IMG/VR virus record: IMGVR_UViG_2703718839_000008
DNA from: a virus
Lineage: Duplodnaviria; Heunggongvirae; Uroviricota; Caudoviricetes
DNA length: 42,613 nt
Reading direction: 5' to 3' (one strand)
The notes beneath the pieces were generated by a model that saw nothing but the letters and a program-made list of their open reading frames with translations, searched no databases and was not told where the DNA came from. Shown here one piece after another: positions 3,973-14,640 of the stretch (positions are counted from its first letter, which is position 1; each line of letters begins with the position of its first letter). The translations under genes and the position numbers were made by a program.

Positions 3973-4334
3973 TATGCTCCAGCCTCCGGTGCTTTTGGCA
4001 TTACTGCCCAGTGAGTGATGTTGACGTTTTCAAGGTCCCCGACCTGAAATATCCACTGCCATTCTCCGGTTTCTTTTTGCCCCCATGTATACCAGAGAGA
4101 ACGCCAGCCAATCAGCCAGCCTTCTCCATTAGCATCAAATAACAGAACACTTTCATTTGCTGGTGGCAGTTCAGCTGACACTGGTATTATTTTGTTTTCC
4201 AGTGCCGTACATTTAGCTTCAAGCGCATCGAATTTACGTACCAGGTACTCAGCATTTGTTTCGTTCACTTTCAGATCTCGCGGTACACATTTCCCGCGAA
4301 GAAACCCTTCCATTTCGAAAACATTCATGCGCAT
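3972..4334 (-). CDS. DUF551-like phage protein (YfdS-like, 120 aa)
   Basis: Trp-rich C-terminus EGWLIGWRSLWYTWGQKETGEWQWIF; size and position match the CPS-53 yfdS slot. Confidence 0.55.
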   Translation of the reverse strand: MRMNVFEMEGFLRGKCVPRDLKVNETNAEYLVRKFDALEAKCTALENKIIPVSAELPPANESVLLFDANGEGWLIGWRSLWYTWGQKETGEWQWIFQVGDLENVNITHWAVMPKAPEAGA

Positions 4335-4861
4335 TTGCGTAACTCCGATAACTCGTTAAAACGTTCCATAAACATCCCGTAGGCATGGCCTGGTGACAGT
4401 GGAATAACTTTGAACATCTCTGTCGCCGGGATACCTTCCAGTACAGGCCAGAAAGAGCCATCATCAAGCCCGAGATCGCGGCGTTCGGTTGCCAGCATAA
4501 TGAGATCGGCATATTTCACTGGCGTGCTCATAACAGGAGGTAACCCGTATTTCTCACGGATTACGGCGTCTATTTTTTCTTCCATCCGTTTATAGTCAGG
4601 AAGAAGGCGTTTCAGTGGTGCGGGGATGTCCTGGCAATATGCTTCTGTTGCATCATGCATTAACGCTTCAAAAGCAAATTCCTGCGGTACCAGCTGGCTG
4701 CAAAGCACCGCATGTTGGGCGACGCTGTAGAAGTGTGAAAGATGTCCTGCAAAGCGACAGATATTTGAAAGGGAAACCGCGACATCGTTAATAACGATGT
4801 CGTCTTTATTTATCCTGTCATAATAAAAATGCTTCCCGGAAAAAGTTTTAATAAATGACAT
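4325..4861 (-). CDS. HD-domain phosphohydrolase (YfdR-like 5'-nucleotidase family), 178 aa
   Basis: H..H and HD motifs (FAGHLSHF..., MHDATEAY); GGAG RBS before MSFIKTF; size matches YfdR. Confidence 0.6.
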   Translation of the reverse strand: MSFIKTFSGKHFYYDRINKDDIVINDVAVSLSNICRFAGHLSHFYSVAQHAVLCSQLVPQEFAFEALMHDATEAYCQDIPAPLKRLLPDYKRMEEKIDAVIREKYGLPPVMSTPVKYADLIMLATERRDLGLDDGSFWPVLEGIPATEMFKVIPLSPGHAYGMFMERFNELSELRKCA

Positions 4862-5878: not shown

Positions 5879-6241
5879 TTAATGACCTGCTGCGCGGAGT
5901 TTTCCGTCAGGTTCACCGGCAAGAGTCAGTAATTGTCCCTGGTCTTCCTGCAGAATAGTCAGGCGACCACCGCGATTGACATACATCGGCGTTTCGGTGG
6001 TGTCTTCTTCGGAAATTTTCCCGCGGTTAGTCGGGCGAACATATGAGAGTTTGTGTTTGATTTTCACACGGTTCTCATCAAATGGTTCGATTTCCAGGTT
6101 GAGTGAGACCTTCCCTTTGGTTTTCGTGTTCATCACACCGGAAGCGACTTCACTGAGAACTGCGCCGATTTTGGTTTCAAATACGCCGCCGTCCAGCTCC
6201 CCGATAAATGCCTGCACATCAGTACTGCGTTCGCTAGCCAT
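5879..6241 (-). CDS. YfdP-like hypothetical protein, 120 aa
   Basis: Internal ATG (MASERS...) with GAGGAG RBS; the longer ORF-track N-terminal extension runs through the GC-rich leader and is not protein-like. Confidence 0.55.
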   Translation of the reverse strand: MASERSTDVQAFIGELDGGVFETKIGAVLSEVASGVMNTKTKGKVSLNLEIEPFDENRVKIKHKLSYVRPTNRGKISEEDTTETPMYVNRGGRLTILQEDQGQLLTLAGEPDGKLRAAGH

Positions 6242-6289
6242 TTTGCTGCTCCTCATCATATCGACCCTGCAAGGTCGGTTGGTTTCTCC

Positions 6290-6560
6290 ACAAAACAGAG
6301 AAGAACACCTGCGGTGGCAGCCGCCCGGATGGATTGGGTTATGAGCCCGTCGTCCGGTGATGCTCTTCTCTGTTTTGTAAAAAGAGCGGTACCAGCCGGA
6401 AGCAAGTGTACAAACTGGTACCGCGAGGACTACACACAGCATAAAGTTGTGGTGCCGGGTGCCTCCCGGTGCCTGGCGAAGGTTGCACACCAGGCGGGTG
6501 GGTATCCACAGAAGGTCGACTGTCAGCCTCAACCTTAACCCGCGTGCGCTGAGCCGCATT
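6290..6560 (-). promoter_or_regulatory. GC-rich structured leader in the leftward early transcript; candidate cis-acting RNA (antitermination or processing element)
   Basis: Long-range inverted repeat caaaacagagaaga (6297-6310) / tcttctctgttttg (6373-6386); perfect hairpin ggtaccag...ctggtacc (about 6399-6433); boxA-like CGCTCTTTTTACAA on the minus strand; no credible ORF. Confidence 0.35.
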
Positions 6561-6678
6561 CACCACAACGCTAAGGATTCTCTCTGGTTGAAAATACTTA
6601 GCTGTTATGTGCCTGTCTTTTCACCACTTCAGGCTCGGTGGTATCCTTTTAAGCCCGTATACATAAAAGGAAAATCAA

Positions 6679-6924
6679 ATGACTTTTGATGAAAAAGAAC
6701 TTGATAATGCAATTAATAAAATCATCGTAACGTCGCTCTTTTCCTGTCTCAGCGACACTCAGCAGAAACAGTTCTACGAATCGGCTTTCAACATGATCGA
6801 GCGTTGTTGTTTCTGCGATGCCGACGAGTTACCTGAAAAAATCAGGAAACAGTTGGCTGATGCTCTTCGAGTGCGACTTTCTGACCAATTTTCTGAAATG
6901 TGCTCTCCGAATTTGGACAAATAG
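6679..6924 (+). CDS. Small hypothetical protein, 81 aa
   Basis: ATG with AAGGA RBS; plausible helical protein; convergent with and overlapping the 6842-7117 minus ORF, so one of the two may be spurious. Confidence 0.35.
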   Translation: MTFDEKELDNAINKIIVTSLFSCLSDTQQKQFYESAFNMIERCCFCDADELPEKIRKQLADALRVRLSDQFSEMCSPNLDK

Positions 6925-7117
6925 AAAAAGGCCATTTCCATTCAGGGTCTGATGGAAATACTTCAGCCTGTTCCAAAGCACGGCGTAAAGAGAATACAAC
7001 TCCAGCCATAATCTGATGTTTCCCATTGGTCCAGCTATCGCCGCTCTGATCTACAGGAGCGGCTATGTCGTATGACCAAACGACTTCACCACTATTGTTT
7101 AAAATCTGGACTTTCAT
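6842..7117 (-). CDS. Small hypothetical protein, 91 aa, first ORF downstream of pL (N / nun / rex-equivalent position)
   Basis: Starts about 115 nt downstream of the predicted pL start site; GGAGG upstream; overlaps the plus-strand ORF by 83 nt. Confidence 0.35.
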   Translation of the reverse strand: MKVQILNNSGEVVWSYDIAAPVDQSGDSWTNGKHQIMAGVVFSLRRALEQAEVFPSDPEWKWPFSICPNSESTFQKIGQKVALEEHQPTVS

Positions 7118-7234
7118 TTTGTTCTTTAACCTCCAGATACGGGCGTTTAATGGCCCCGCCGAACAGCTCTTTTCCGCAATAGCTGCAATGTCTTTCGCGC
7201 ATCAGCCTGCGCATTCACCACAACTCTAAAAACA

Positions 7235-7264
7235 AATGTAGGATATCCAACATGTGAGTGTCAA
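7235..7264 (-). promoter_or_regulatory. pL-like early leftward promoter
   Basis: Minus strand TTGACA (7264-7259), 18-bp spacer, TACATT (7240-7235), overlapped by an operator; mirror image of pR. Confidence 0.5.
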
Positions 7265-7350: not shown

Positions 7351-8004
7351 TCAAAAATCCATTATTACTTGTTTGACAAGACCAACTATTCTGCAGTTCT
7401 CACCGCATTCAATAGTTTTATAGTTAGGATTTAGTGGGACGAGATACCTGTTCGGCCAGTCCTCAACAAATTTTTTGAGTGTCGCTTCTTGCCCACCATT
7501 GATATGGGCAACAACGATTTTTCCGTTAATACACTCTGTATCAATAATATCTGGCTCTACGATAACGATAGAACCTTCTGGTATCGATGGTGAGCCGAGG
7601 GGATTGGTCATTGAATCACCACGGACCCGTAGTGCAAATGCCATTTCTGATACAAGGGCGGTAGTATAAACCCACTCTTCAGCATCTTCTTTCCTGACAC
7701 CAGGCTCCGTCATTGTCCATGAACCCGCCTGAACCCACGAGATGAGGGGGACTTTTTTAACTGCGAATATTTCAGGTTTTAGATTTATCTTTGGTTCAGG
7801 CGAGCCTTTTCCGCTAACAAGCCACAGAGGATCGCATTTAAGTGCGTTGGCTAGGGCTTGAAGGTTGGCTCCATTTGGTTGGTAGTCGTCCTTTTCCCAT
7901 CCAGTAACCGTGACACGGTTCACACCAGTCAAATCAGCCAGTGCTTGTTGTGTCAGGTTCAGTTCTTTTCGCCTTTGGCGAATACGATCACTCATGTTCA
8001 TCAT
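7351..8004 (-). CDS. CI-type prophage repressor (N-terminal HTH, C-terminal S24 LexA-like autopeptidase)
   Basis: N-terminal ...LNLTQQALADLTGVNRVTVTGWE HTH; C-terminal GDSM Ser and downstream Lys; divergent from the Cro-like gene with operators between. Confidence 0.85.
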   Translation of the reverse strand: MMNMSDRIRQRRKELNLTQQALADLTGVNRVTVTGWEKDDYQPNGANLQALANALKCDPLWLVSGKGSPEPKINLKPEIFAVKKVPLISWVQAGSWTMTEPGVRKEDAEEWVYTTALVSEMAFALRVRGDSMTNPLGSPSIPEGSIVIVEPDIIDTECINGKIVVAHINGGQEATLKKFVEDWPNRYLVPLNPNYKTIECGENCRIVGLVKQVIMDF

Positions 8005-8067
8005 GTAGGCAATCCTACCACATGCCCATGTAGGATTCTTGACATTGGTATGTTGGATATCCTACAT
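8003..8067. promoter_or_regulatory. OR operator cluster (three sites)
   Basis: atgtaggcaatcctacca (8003-8020), atgtaggat half-site (about 8029-8037), atgttggatatcctacat (8050-8067). Confidence 0.6.
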
Positions 8068-8068
8068 T
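8039..8068 (+). promoter_or_regulatory. pR-like early rightward promoter
   Basis: TTGACA (8039-8044), 18-bp spacer, TACATT (8063-8068), overlapping an operator. Confidence 0.55.
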
Positions 8069-8099: not shown

Positions 8100-8297
8100 A
8101 TGCGGAAATCCGACGTGATTAATTATTTCGGCGGAGTTTGTAAAACCGCCGAAGCCCTAGGTATTAAGCATCCGTCTGTTTCAGAGTGGCCTGAGATTAT
8201 TCCTGAAGGCCGAGCGTACCAGTTAGAAAAAATTACTAACGGGAAACTGAAAGTTGACGTGTCTTTATATCAAAAGACTAACAGTGCTGCGGCATAA
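8100..8297 (+). CDS. Cro-like / YdaS-like small HTH regulator
   Basis: 65 aa; first gene after pR; GGGAGA RBS. Confidence 0.6.
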   Translation: MRKSDVINYFGGVCKTAEALGIKHPSVSEWPEIIPEGRAYQLEKITNGKLKVDVSLYQKTNSAAA

Positions 8298-8324: not shown

Positions 8325-8909
8325 GTGGGTAAAGAACCTGAATGGAAAGTTGATAAACAACCAGCATGGCTGGTGGCAGCAATACGAAGAACGATTGCTG
8401 ATTTACCTCATGGCTATGAGGAAGCAGCAGAAATTCTTGGTTTGTATAAATCTGATGATATCACCCCAGCAAAAGATCAATTGCATAACAGACTGCGTAG
8501 CGGTGGGGATCAAATTTTTCCACTTGAGTGGGCCATGGTTTTACAGGATGCCAGTGGTACCAGGCATGTAACAGATGCAATAGCCCGTCGTAGTAATGGG
8601 GTGTTTGTGCCGCTGGTGGTCATTGATGACATTGACAATGGTGACATTAATCAGCGGCTGATGGAGTCAATAGAATGGATTGGCAAGCATTCCCAGTACT
8701 TACGCAAGGCAACTGCTGATGGAGTTATTGACCAAGCTGAGCGTGAGCAAATCGAAGAGAACAGCTACCAAGTAATGGCGAAGTGGCAGGAGCATTTAAC
8801 ACTGTTATTTCGTGTTTTTTGTGCGCCGGAAAAGAGTAACGCCCGCGAGTGTGCAGCTCCGGGCGTCGTGGCGTCGATTGCTTCTGGTTGTGGAGAAACT
8901 AACGCATGA
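8325..8909 (+). CDS. CII-like / YdaT-like early regulator, 194 aa
   Basis: GTG start with GAGGAA RBS; position after Cro-like gene; family assignment from recall only. Confidence 0.4.
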
Positions 8910-12878: not shown

Positions 12879-13874
12879 GTGACCGTGAGAGCACTACTGA
12901 CCCCTGAAATAGCCCCGCGTATGGGGATTGTATTGTTCAGACCAGGTTCAGAGCTGATGCCCCTGTTTATGCAGGGGCGTGTCCTGCTGGAGCCTGAGCC
13001 GGAACGTTATTCATCTTTCGCCAGTGGTGCCGTTCCGGCGGCATCACAACCGCTGGCGGATGATCCTGCCGTTAGGGCCGTGTTCCGCAATGAGGCAGTG
13101 ATCCGTCGTGCTGGTGGCGTGGAATGTCTTGAAAGCTGGTTACTTCGTGAAAAAGGCTGCCAGTGGCCTCATTCCGACTGGCACAGCGAGAACATGACCA
13201 CAATGCGACACGCGCCGGGCGCGATCCGTCTGTGCTGGCACTGCGATAACCAGCTGCGCGATCAGTTCACGGAACGGCTGGAATCAATGGCAACGGATAA
13301 CTGTGCCCGCTGGGTGTTGTCTGTAGTCCGTCTGGATCTCGGTTTTGATGATAACCATGCCGTGACAATGCCGGAACTGTGCTGGTGGCTGATTCGTAAT
13401 GACCTGGCGGATGCCTTACCGGAAAGTGCAGCCCGTAAGGCACTGAGATTACCGAAGCCTGTTGTGCCGTCTGTCACCCGGGAAAGTGACCTTGTGCCTT
13501 CGGTTCCTGCCACCAGCATCATCCAGGATAAGGCGAAAAAGGTGCTGGCGCTGAAAGTGGATCCGGAGTCGCCGGAGTCTTTTATGTTACGCCCAAAACG
13601 CCGCCGCTGGGTTAATGAAAAGTACACGCGCTGGGTTAAGACACAGCCGTGTGCATGTTGTGGAAAGCCTGCTGATGATCCCCACCACCTGATAGGCCAC
13701 GGTCAGGGTGGAATGGGTACAAAAGCGCATGACCTCTTTGTGTTGCCTTTGTGCAGAAAGCATCACGACGAGCTGCATGCGGATACCGTGGCATTTGAAG
13801 AGAAGTATGGCTCTCAGCTGGAGCTGATATTTCGTTTTATCGATCGTGCGCTGGCAATTGGCGTATTGGCGTAA
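12879..13874 (+). CDS. DUF968-family nin-region protein (putative HNH-like C-terminus)
   Basis: C-terminal CACCGKPADDPHHLIGHG...LCRKHHDELH; GTG start. Confidence 0.6.
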   Translation: MTVRALLTPEIAPRMGIVLFRPGSELMPLFMQGRVLLEPEPERYSSFASGAVPAASQPLADDPAVRAVFRNEAVIRRAGGVECLESWLLREKGCQWPHSDWHSENMTTMRHAPGAIRLCWHCDNQLRDQFTERLESMATDNCARWVLSVVRLDLGFDDNHAVTMPELCWWLIRNDLADALPESAARKALRLPKPVVPSVTRESDLVPSVPATSIIQDKAKKVLALKVDPESPESFMLRPKRRRWVNEKYTRWVKTQPCACCGKPADDPHHLIGHGQGGMGTKAHDLFVLPLCRKHHDELHADTVAFEEKYGSQLELIFRFIDRALAIGVLA

Positions 13875-13887
13875 GTGGAGAACGAGC

Positions 13888-14640
13888 ATGAACCTTGAAG
13901 CCTTACCAAAATATTACTCCCCAAAATCTCCAAAATTGAGCGATGACGCACCGGCGACAGGCTCAGGTGGTTTAACGATTACGGATGTGATGGCTGCGCA
14001 GGGGATGGTGCAGTCGAAAGCACCGCTTGGGTTTGCCTTATTCCTGGCAAAAGTTGGTGTTCAGGATCCTCAATTTGCGATTGAAGGTCTGCTCAATTAC
14101 GCGATGGCACTGGATAACCCGACATTGAACAAATTGAGTGAAGAAACCCGGTTACAGATCATCCCTTACCTTGTGAATTTTGCCTTTGCTGATTATTCCA
14201 GGTCTGCGGCAAGTAAGGCTCGCTGTGAGCATTGTGCTGGTACTGGATTTCATAATGTATTGCGCGAAGTGGTGAAACACTCCAGAAGCGGGGAATCTGT
14301 TATCAAGGAAGAGTGGGTGAAGGAACTATGTCAGCATTGTCATGGTAAGGGAGAAGTCAGCACAGCGTGCAGAGGGTGTAAGGGTAAAGGTATTGTCCTG
14401 GATGAAAAAAGGACCCGGCTTCATGGCACGCCTGTTTATAAGATTTGTGGGCGTTGCAATGGAAACCGGTTTAGCCGTTTACCAACCACACTGGCGCGGC
14501 ATCATGTCCAGAAGCTGGTACCAGACCTGACGGATTATCAGTGGTACAAAGGATATGCAGATGTCATTGATAAACTGGTTACAAAGTGCTGGCAGGAAGA
14601 AGCATATGCAGAGATACAATTGAGAAAGGTGACAAGATAA
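13888..14640 (+). CDS. Late-gene antiterminator Q-like protein
   Basis: Multiple CxxC zinc-binding pairs; immediately upstream of the PR'-like promoter and terminator; GGAG RBS at MNLEAL. The ORF could instead start at 13846. Confidence 0.65.
   Translation: MNLEALPKYYSPKSPKLSDDAPATGSGGLTITDVMAAQGMVQSKAPLGFALFLAKVGVQDPQFAIEGLLNYAMALDNPTLNKLSEETRLQIIPYLVNFAFADYSRSAASKARCEHCAGTGFHNVLREVVKHSRSGESVIKEEWVKELCQHCHGKGEVSTACRGCKGKGIVLDEKRTRLHGTPVYKICGRCNGNRFSRLPTTLARHHVQKLVPDLTDYQWYKGYADVIDKLVTKCWQEEAYAEIQLRKVTR

Follow-up and report, generated by a model that had tools for sequence, protein, structure and literature searches.

The window analysed here is a 42,613-nucleotide (nt) stretch of viral DNA (IMG/VR record IMGVR_UViG_2703718839_000008), and our subject is the leader of its early-left (PL) operon. 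The window is a lambdoid prophage of the SfV/e14 type, the region being 100% identical to phage vB_EcoM-720R4 and 98% identical to Shigella phage SfV. We found that the leader, which is untranslated and is encoded on the minus strand, is composed of two separate RNA modules. A known family, the STnc100 small RNAs (sRNAs) of prophages, accounts for two thirds of it, which end in an intrinsic terminator; the other third is a tRNA-like three-way junction that is conserved and for which no description was found in Rfam or in the literature searched. We read the whole as a PL-operon leader that carries an STnc100-family sRNA with its terminator, behind which the junction would act as a processing or recognition element, and we assign this reading a probability of about 0.55.

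An initial annotation of positions 6290-6560 had described a GC-rich, highly structured leader in the early-left transcript without a credible open reading frame (ORF). The leader is indeed a structured, non-coding part of the PL transcription unit, but these limits cut across the two modules and the right one is too short, as the element begins ~40-80 nt further right (6599-6641). Its GC content (57.6%) is high locally, the 1-kb flanks having 46.8% and 42.3%, but not window-wide: 12% of equal-size segments in the 42.6 kb are at least as GC-rich. The high degree of structure is borne out by the minus-strand fold of 400 nt (6640-6241), with a z-score of -6.65 relative to dinucleotide shuffles. 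What had gone unnoticed is that the inverted repeat in this region is a separate, conserved tRNA-like three-way junction, and that the perfect 8-bp hairpin is an intrinsic terminator.

An STnc100-family core followed by an intrinsic terminator

Comparison of the whole window with the Rfam covariance models gave a single match, to the family STnc100, whose model is covered at full length including the terminator (model positions 1-206; 49.1 bits, E 1e-7, with a gathering score of 47 bits). Besides STnc100, a search of positions 6000-6900 at permissive thresholds returned noise only. Among the functions initially put forward for the leader, an sRNA comes nearest to this result, for the right-hand two thirds only. 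Module 1 is a divergent member of the family, with a core of ~125 nt that is closed by helix P1, contains five hairpins and a pseudoknot, and is followed by a linker and the terminator (Table 1).

A 22-mer that is invariant in the family, CACCGGGAGGCACCCGGCACCA, is present without changes at positions 6450-6471. Viral contigs were scanned with this 22-mer, which resulted in 120 loci representing 107 distinct elements. These have a common architecture: P1 (nnUGGUG...CACCAnn), AAU, P2, a short strand, a variable hairpin, P5, P6 and the return strand of P1. Compensatory changes among the homologs were found in P1, P5 and the pseudoknot. The outer pairs of P1, which has 9 bp in the window, covary in 29 representatives (GC in 14, AU in 13), and in the same set P5 is 87% paired, with both bases exchanged and pairing preserved in seven of its eight pairs. 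P2 is subfamily-specific, canonical members having CCCCC-UGUGCGG-AGGGG instead.

The pseudoknot is formed by the P5 loop and the strand that follows P2 (AAGGUUG/CAACCUU in the window). In other members these strands are AUCAGCG/UGCUGGU, CCAGUC/GACUGG, CUGGUG/CACCGG or AGACUGACAAA/UUUGUCAGUCU, for example; at least 12 different compensatory versions occur across the family, and 43 representatives contain 23 distinct strand pairs of at least 6 bp. The offset of the 5' strand is fixed, as it begins 18-23 nt past GGUGAAU. A column-based count on a MAFFT alignment gave 42% paired, but the register shifts between subfamilies and we therefore used a register-free test, in which the mean complementarity was 6.4 bp versus 5.1-5.2 +/- 0.15 bp in two controls. 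This pseudoknot is an addition made here to the description of the STnc100 family: the pairing is absent from the cmscan structure line, and the recent Pas/STnc100 preprint contains no mention of a pseudoknot.

The linker that separates the core from the terminator is a candidate seed or Hfq site. The terminator hairpin, initially described as 8 bp long, is present and actually has 10 bp (6386-6395 with 6415-6424). Its 19-nt loop is atypical, and a simple terminator scan that allowed loops of up to 8 missed it. The stem of phage ST64B is wholly different in sequence yet paired (GUCGGCGUC/GACGCCGAC), with the tail CUUUUUAC kept and a loop of ~47 nt, and pairing with a replaced stem sequence was also observed at loci of other genera. 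In many phages, the similarity to the window (99-100% identity) is confined to 6424-6240, which places the module boundary precisely at the base of the terminator.

The STnc100 sRNA exists in multiple prophage copies; in strain EDL933 there are 11, for which reads were obtained without induction, and one of them was confirmed by Northern blotting (PMC5331693). The Hfq-bound EcOnc27/sRNA103 coincides in part with the STnc100 copy that follows stx2B (PMC12711010). The family is structurally related to PasD (bioRxiv 10.64898/2026.05.13.724894), which is Hfq-dependent (PMC8550237) and, as PasD2, the most abundant RNA in CsrA ternary complexes (bioRxiv 10.64898/2026.08.12.744399). STnc100, EcOnc27 and PasD are expressed, Hfq-bound prophage sRNAs, and accumulation as an Hfq-associated RNA of ~160-210 nt is documented for copies other than that of the window (PMC5331693, PMC12711010, PMC8550237). 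At the loci that we sampled, the canonical copies are preceded by a conserved block, CTCACAATTCAG..TTGAC..TGTTAAAAG, and have their own tight terminator, which is often followed by a terminator on the opposite strand; most of them are located between Q/methylase genes and nanS-p esterase, holin or lysozyme genes. The promoter-like block is absent 5' of the window copy. STnc100 copies also occur in tandem arrays, 137-920 nt apart and each with its own terminator (at least eight loci), and some of the second copies have a slightly changed 22-mer. STnc100/Pas RNAs rank with the most abundant RNAs of prophage origin in pathogenic E. coli; the covarying pseudoknot and the invariant core point to a specific partner rather than to simple base-pairing. 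The window subfamily represents the STnc100 fold used inside an early operon, before the excision and integration genes.

A conserved tRNA-like three-way junction

Module 2 starts 2 nt past the U-tract of the terminator. The long-range inverted repeat of the initial annotation is real, with 25-nt arms that are 84% complementary, but the arms are located at 6290-6314 and 6354-6378 and not at 6297-6310 and 6373-6386. The 89-nt module alone folds with a z-score of -7.27 into a junction of a 20-bp stem, S1, and two arms, A (CCGGA/UCCGG, an internal loop and GGG-CUCAUAA-CCC) and B (GCGG-CUGCCA-CCGC). RNAalifold returned the same junction for 19 diverse copies, and 8 of the 30 pairs show compensatory changes, which fall in S1, arm A and arm B; one S1 pair, for instance, is CG in ten copies and GC in the other nine.

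The end of arm A, GGGCUCAUAACCC, is identical to nt 29-41 of the E. coli initiator tRNA-fMet, a 13-mer that covers its CAU anticodon loop and three G-C pairs (3 of the 5 pairs of the anticodon stem). The tRNA-fMet reference sequence used has a 100% match to annotated tRNA-Met genes in all 5426 genomes. The junction is widespread, being present on more than 100 viral contigs, and 98 of 106 viral-contig copies begin directly after the terminator U-tract plus AC. It was also found in at least 18 species of Enterobacterales, in genera that include Escherichia, Citrobacter, Enterobacter, Kosakonia, Mixta, Atlantibacter, Buttiauxella and Mangrovibacter. This genome scan was done with an 18-mer flank-only pattern that mostly gave chance matches in GC-rich genomes, and only the 18 enterobacterial matches were used. 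Although outside the search pattern, GGGCUCAU is invariant in the 18 species; the whole 13-mer is kept in 13 of them, and the other five have GGGCUCAUUCCCC, with the loop CUCAUUC. The exact copy of the initiator-tRNA anticodon arm gives rise to concrete hypotheses that are testable with standard tools.

The junction of the window is not a tRNA in the usual sense: it lacks a CCA end, a T loop and a D arm. ARAGORN detected no tRNA genes in the window, the Rfam tRNA model did not match the junction at E values up to 10, and no Rfam family was found for it. A shorter version is present in Klebsiella phages, where it directly follows real tRNA genes in the interval from Q to the lysis genes; an acceptor-like stem of 6-7 bp and RCCA are present, a D arm is not, and neither ARAGORN nor Rfam calls this version a tRNA. 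In phages GZ7 (1205-1280) and Chronis (1205-1275 of the extracted loci), this D-arm-less element follows tRNA-Asn/tRNA-Arg and has the same GGGCUCAUAAUCC arm. The copy in prophage e14 is decayed and has lost the loop sequence (GGGUUAAUAACCC). Full-text literature searches for tRNA-like leaders in lambdoid phages did not result in any description.

Genomic context of the leader

The placement of the leader between a PL-proximal ORF and yfdP, as initially proposed, agrees with the ORF list, the promoter scan and the PHROG identities. On the minus strand the order is PL, the small ORFs, core, terminator, junction, a small hairpin, the ribosome binding site, and yfdP or xis. Downstream of yfdP, PHROG scans identified yfdQ, the yfdR phosphatase, an exonuclease and an excisionase; the operon reads yfdPQR-exo-xis-int. 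A consensus scan did not reveal sigma-70-like promoters (at least 9/12) on the minus strand between PL and the STnc100 element, and PHROG scans that detected a Q-like gene found no N-like protein among the genes of the window. The position of the small hairpin between the junction and the ribosome binding site is kept in other genera with a different sequence (e.g., GGCGGUGGCAGCCGCC), which suggests that it may be a conserved 5' stabiliser or a translational element. The two small ORFs upstream of the leader are convergent, overlap by 83 nt and have PHROG families of their own (3311, 3195); they correspond to the pair ymfI/ymfJ in e14. At the left edge of the conserved module, a hairpin, ACCACCGAGCCUGAAGUGGU, is located at 6623-6642; on the plus strand it is terminator-like, is followed by ATCCTTTTAA and lies upstream of the plus-strand ORF.

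Table 1. Features of the leader and of its surroundings in the window.
Feature	Position	Strand	Basis or remarks
STnc100-family RNA (Rfam RF02076)	6377-6599	minus	Rfam search
P1, 5' strand GUUGUGGUG, then conserved AAU	6561-6569	minus	inverted-repeat search, fold, covariation
P2 hairpin UGCG-GCUCAG-CGCA	6545-6558	minus	Rfam alignment, fold
Pseudoknot, 5' strand AAGGUUG	6530-6536	minus	pairs with P5 loop
P5 hairpin GCCUGGUG-UGCAACCUU-CGCCAGGC	6471-6495	minus	covariation
Pseudoknot, 3' strand CAACCUU in P5 loop	6479-6485	minus	
P6 hairpin CCGGG-AGGCA-CCCGG	6455-6469	minus	within invariant 22-mer
P1, 3' strand CACCACAAC	6446-6454	minus	inverted-repeat search, fold, covariation
Linker, single-stranded, U/G-rich, 21 nt	6425-6445	minus	fold; similar in ST64B
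Intrinsic terminator, 10-bp stem GCGGUACCAG/CUGGUACCGC, 19-nt loop, tail UCUUUUUAC	6377-6424	minus	
tRNA-like three-way junction	6290-6378	minus	S1 6359-6378 with 6290-6309; arm A 6325-6357; arm B 6311-6324
Initiator-tRNA arm copy, three G-C pairs and loop CUCAUAA	6336-6348	minus	identity to tRNA-fMet
Small GC hairpin CGACCUUGCAGGGUCG	6262-6277	minus	past junction, directly upstream of yfdP ribosome binding site
yfdP-like gene, 120 aa	5879-6241	minus	first gene 3' of leader; Shine-Dalgarno sequence GAGGAG 6249-6254
Small ORF	6679-6924	plus	PHROG family, function unknown
Small ORF	6842-7117	minus	PHROG family, function unknown
Truncated 5' part of mEp460-type STnc100-like element (P1 5' strand, AAU, first hairpins)	7139-7224	minus	lacks 3' half
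PL-like promoter (TTGACA, 18-nt spacer, TACATT)	7235-7264	minus	10/12 match; adjoins cI gene
cI-type repressor gene	7351-8004	minus	PHROG scan, ORF list
PR	8039-8068		consensus scan; hexamers and spacing same as PL
cro-like gene	8100-8297		rightward of cI; ORF list, PHROG scan
cII-like gene	8325-8909		rightward of cro; ORF list, PHROG scan
Q-like antiterminator gene	13846-14640		far right of leader; PHROG scan

The same leader (91% identity) is present in prophage e14 of E. coli K-12, where it is labelled ymfH and is located directly before xisE-intE; ymfH, at 4075-4386 of the extracted e14 locus, overlaps the STnc100-like core, the terminator and the junction. Of 5426 complete E. coli genomes, 2781 gave Megablast matches to the leader, and 1824 of these contain most of it. 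In e14, the upstream gene ymfJ is induced together with ymfH, xisE and intE by DNA damage/SOS (PMC2634741, PMC11228462), and a reporter of the predicted intE-xisE-ymfH operon promoter was active in one replicate of one of 39 conditions (PMC12132413). These data fit transcription from PL that partly reads through the terminator. No reports of ymfH or xisE as an sRNA locus were found in full-text literature searches. Our results suggest that the K-12 y-gene ymfH is not a gene but the RNA leader of xisE-intE.

A second, truncated element is present at PL itself. There are exactly two occurrences of the 15-mer GTTGTGGTGAATGCG, one within P1 (6569-6555) and one at 7224-7210, 5 nt past the PL -10 region. 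The truncated element begins ~5 nt after the PL start, and its P1 5' strand is shared with the intact copy located ~660 nt downstream. The PL copy extends for 86 nt and is nearly identical to positions 1653-1738 of the extracted locus of phage mEp460, the 5' part of an element of another type that is complete in this phage. Stx2c_EH0430 has the same PL, followed from about +5 of the transcript by a complete mEp460-type element that leads directly into the same terminator, junction and yfdP; to judge from its position, this element shows that in relatives such an element would be the first thing transcribed from PL. The copy at PL in the window is probably a recombination scar. SfV and e14 have a different PL leader without the GTTGTGGTGAATGCG element. 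The idea that the 15-mer is a functional long-range partner of P1 was rejected, since SfV and e14 keep the STnc100 copy but lack the 15-mer at PL. Rfam does not recognise the mEp460-type element, whose fold is no better than that of shuffles (z -0.97). Its 5' 86 nt are also present, with ~98% identity, near plp in phages related to bacteriophage P1, and in Klebsiella and Salmonella phages; P1 itself, RCS47, JL22 and IME207 are among the matches. The interval between cI and sb37 (yfdP) of ST64B (1348-2164 of the extracted locus, 800 nt) is GC-rich and without annotated ORFs; its first part resembles the PL leader of SfV/e14 (AACAGGCAGGACGCCCACGAAGUAGCCGCC) and may be a further structured element.

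Proposed mode of action, alternatives and related systems

According to the reading that we prefer, RNA polymerase starting at PL would transcribe module 1 upon induction of the prophage. Part of the transcripts would stop at the terminator and give a stable sRNA with the terminator hairpin and a U tail, like the Hfq-bound STnc100, EcOnc27 and PasD, and the others would read through into yfdPQR-exo-xis-int; the loop of 19 nt (47 nt in ST64B) is expected to make the terminator less efficient. In the read-through RNA, the junction would be a recognition or processing site, where RNase III acting on the long stem, or a tRNA-directed enzyme, could generate an mRNA with its 5' end close to the small hairpin that precedes the ribosome binding site of yfdP. 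RNase III could plausibly cleave the 20-bp S1, and the form found in Klebsiella phages resembles a substrate of RNase P. The dense structure may also keep the long untranslated leader free of Rho loading sites.

Several points weigh against this reading. The Rfam score is marginal, and even near-identical relatives (SfV 39.5 and PhiR49_1 40.3 bits) stay below the gathering score, as does ST64B (35.1 bits), which is why standard annotation misses the window subfamily. Canonical STnc100 genes stand alone near Q and lysis genes, and the window copy may therefore work differently. A weak candidate for an own promoter was seen by eye at 6619-6591 (AAGACA, 17-nt spacer, TATTTT; 8/12), and a mosaic boundary near 6641 leaves space for a promoter belonging to the element. 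Transcription of this copy from PL, its 3' end at the terminator and its processing are predictions from the sequence. Finally, the copy of the anticodon arm is more invariant than an RNase III site requires. That the copy is exact hints at a more specific role, for instance as a sensor of, or decoy for, factors that recognise this arm; VapC toxins of Shigella and Salmonella, for example, cut tRNA-fMet in the anticodon stem-loop (PMC4705866). In an extended form, which we consider doubtful, the junction would be a functional mimic of the initiator anticodon arm heading an early operon, serving as a decoy or sensor (e.g., of VapC) or docking the 30S P site, IF3 or MetRS to control translation of the operon, and together with the STnc100 core it would constitute an RNA-only control unit for N-less lambdoid phages.

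Other explanations place the function of the leader in antitermination or attenuation. The initial annotation had noted a boxA-like string, CGCTCTTTTTACAA, which is indeed present on the minus strand at 6375-6388; in the PL transcript it reads CGCUCUUUUUACAA, resembles the boxA of rrn operons, UGCUCUUUAACAA, and might recruit NusB/NusE and an unknown phage factor for processive antitermination. However, the string is made up of the 3' end of the terminator stem and the U-tract, and the GCTC (GCUC) before the tail is GTCC in SfV, GCCC in e14 and GACC in ST64B, so that in homologs that are 91-98% identical only CUUUUUAC is kept. In addition, no boxB-type hairpin follows, as the 5' arm of S1 comes directly after the string, and no N homolog was detected; the nut-like proposal is largely refuted by this non-conservation and appears very improbable. 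An antiterminator like HK022 put, an RNA that acts in cis through the zinc-binding domain of the RNA polymerase beta' subunit to suppress termination, was also proposed initially; it would replace the missing N through a core that binds its own polymerase and passes the adjacent and later terminators. The terminator directly after the element must be passed for expression of xis and int, the sister element of Stx2c_EH0430 directly follows PL as putL does (PMC9378689), the downstream genes of e14 are co-induced with the upstream ones (PMC2634741), and the conservation of the core far exceeds the need of a base-pairing sRNA. Nevertheless, this possibility is rather unlikely: blastn-short comparison of putL and putR with the window leader gave 8-nt chance matches only, the architecture is different, and there is no second copy in the PR operon. 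Canonical members are abundant in uninduced lysogens (PMC5331693). Many of these copies are just upstream of holin or lysozyme genes, where self-promoted read-through would be lethal, and many are followed by an opposite-strand terminator and hence are not leaders. Moreover, the e14 core has changes in the otherwise invariant P6 and e14 still reads through, which argues against core-dependent read-through of this kind. An 11-mer, GCGGGTTCAGG, is shared between HK022 putL and P5 of several canonical STnc100 copies (E 0.16), probably by chance; the window subfamily lacks it. The core could also be a riboswitch or a protein-controlled attenuator in which a metabolite or a protein (CsrA, Hfq) sets the firing of the terminator. 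Its aptamer-like build, in which a helix closes a pseudoknotted multi-helix junction with invariant bases in the junction and the loops, ahead of a terminator, would suit such a role, and so would the co-oriented genes downstream (74 of 86 ORFs on the same strand), the GGA motifs in P6 and the abundance of the relative PasD2 in CsrA complexes (bioRxiv 10.64898/2026.08.12.744399). Yet no alternative pairing between core and terminator was found in the window, where a 21-nt linker separates them; the terminator stems vary freely, the downstream genes have no common metabolic theme and the RNAs accumulate as free sRNAs, which makes this explanation quite improbable. A stem sequence common to P2 and the terminator was seen in some canonical copies; as a basis for riboswitch logic it was discarded, being neither general nor present in the window.

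The two remaining alternatives deny an RNA function to all or part of the leader. Small ORFs (75, 74 and 49 aa) are present in the region, and the yfdP ORF can be extended at its 5' end; some of these frames are annotated in K-12 and in several phage records (ymfH, hypothetical proteins; 75-103 aa), as if it encoded a YmfH-like protein. The ymfH frame, however, has 103 codons in e14 and 75 in the window and SfV, where it is shifted after ~34 codons so that the C-terminus differs beyond about residue 34, and in ST64B it stops after 19 codons. Since the frame is not conserved the region is non-coding, in line with the initial annotation; in addition, the indels are not multiples of three (terminator loop of 19 versus ~47 nt), the substitutions are compensatory for RNA pairing, and the start codon lies within helix P1. 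ymfH is probably not a protein gene, and a coding function is highly unlikely. As to the junction, it might be a decayed tRNA pseudogene carried along with the terminator, without a function of its own: related copies in the tRNA arrays of Klebsiella phages have retained RCCA and a stem resembling an acceptor, none of the copies is accepted by ARAGORN or the tRNA model, and position 37 is U in some species. Against this, S1 and both arms have compensatory changes, GGGCUCAU, which was no part of the search pattern, does not vary among the 18 species found, the junction is fixed to the terminator U-tract in nearly all viral-contig copies, and it is the copy in the cryptic e14, by contrast, that lost the loop sequence. 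We regard a pseudogene as unlikely.

The leader shares features with several known systems. With the STnc100 RNAs (EcOnc27/sRNA103, PasD1/PasD2), module 1 has in common the closing helix with GGUGAAU, CACCGGGAGGCACCCGGCACCA, P5, P6, a terminal terminator and the location in a lambdoid prophage. It differs from them in P2, the upstream region and the type of terminator, with its 19-nt loop, and the copy resides inside the PL operon before yfdP and not near Q, stx or lysis genes. The promoter, short structured RNA, intrinsic terminator and operon follow each other as in the lambda pR'-tR' 6S RNA and the StxS sRNA, and Sy et al. reportedly described in 2020 that the terminated product, StxS, can be an Hfq-binding sRNA. 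However, these RNAs are part of a Q-controlled late operon, whereas the window leader is in an early-left operon for which no antiterminator is known.

Like putL/putR of HK022, the leader is a structured RNA that precedes terminators near the start of the PL operon in a lambdoid phage lacking N, and the Stx2c_EH0430 sister copy shares with put the position directly after PL. In contrast to put, which consists of two stem-loops in ~70 nt (PMC9378689), the core of the window has ~125 nt with a six-way junction and a pseudoknot, its intact copy is located ~660 nt from PL with only a truncated sister at PL, and there is no PR copy, the gap of 27 nt between cro and cII being without an element. STnc100 members moreover seem not to suppress their own terminators in lysogens. 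Finally, the copy of an anticodon arm within a larger RNA is a feature that the junction shares with the thrS operator, the YrlA Y RNAs and phage tRNAs, and related copies are found in phage tRNA arrays. Unlike mimics of the thrS operator type, the junction copies the arm of the initiator tRNA and not that of the cognate tRNA of a synthetase. It differs from tRNAs and YrlA in having neither a D arm nor a T loop, a 20-bp stem that replaces the acceptor and no match to the corresponding Rfam models, and from the tRNA mimics in that it is fused to a terminator and located upstream of phage genes unrelated to methionine.

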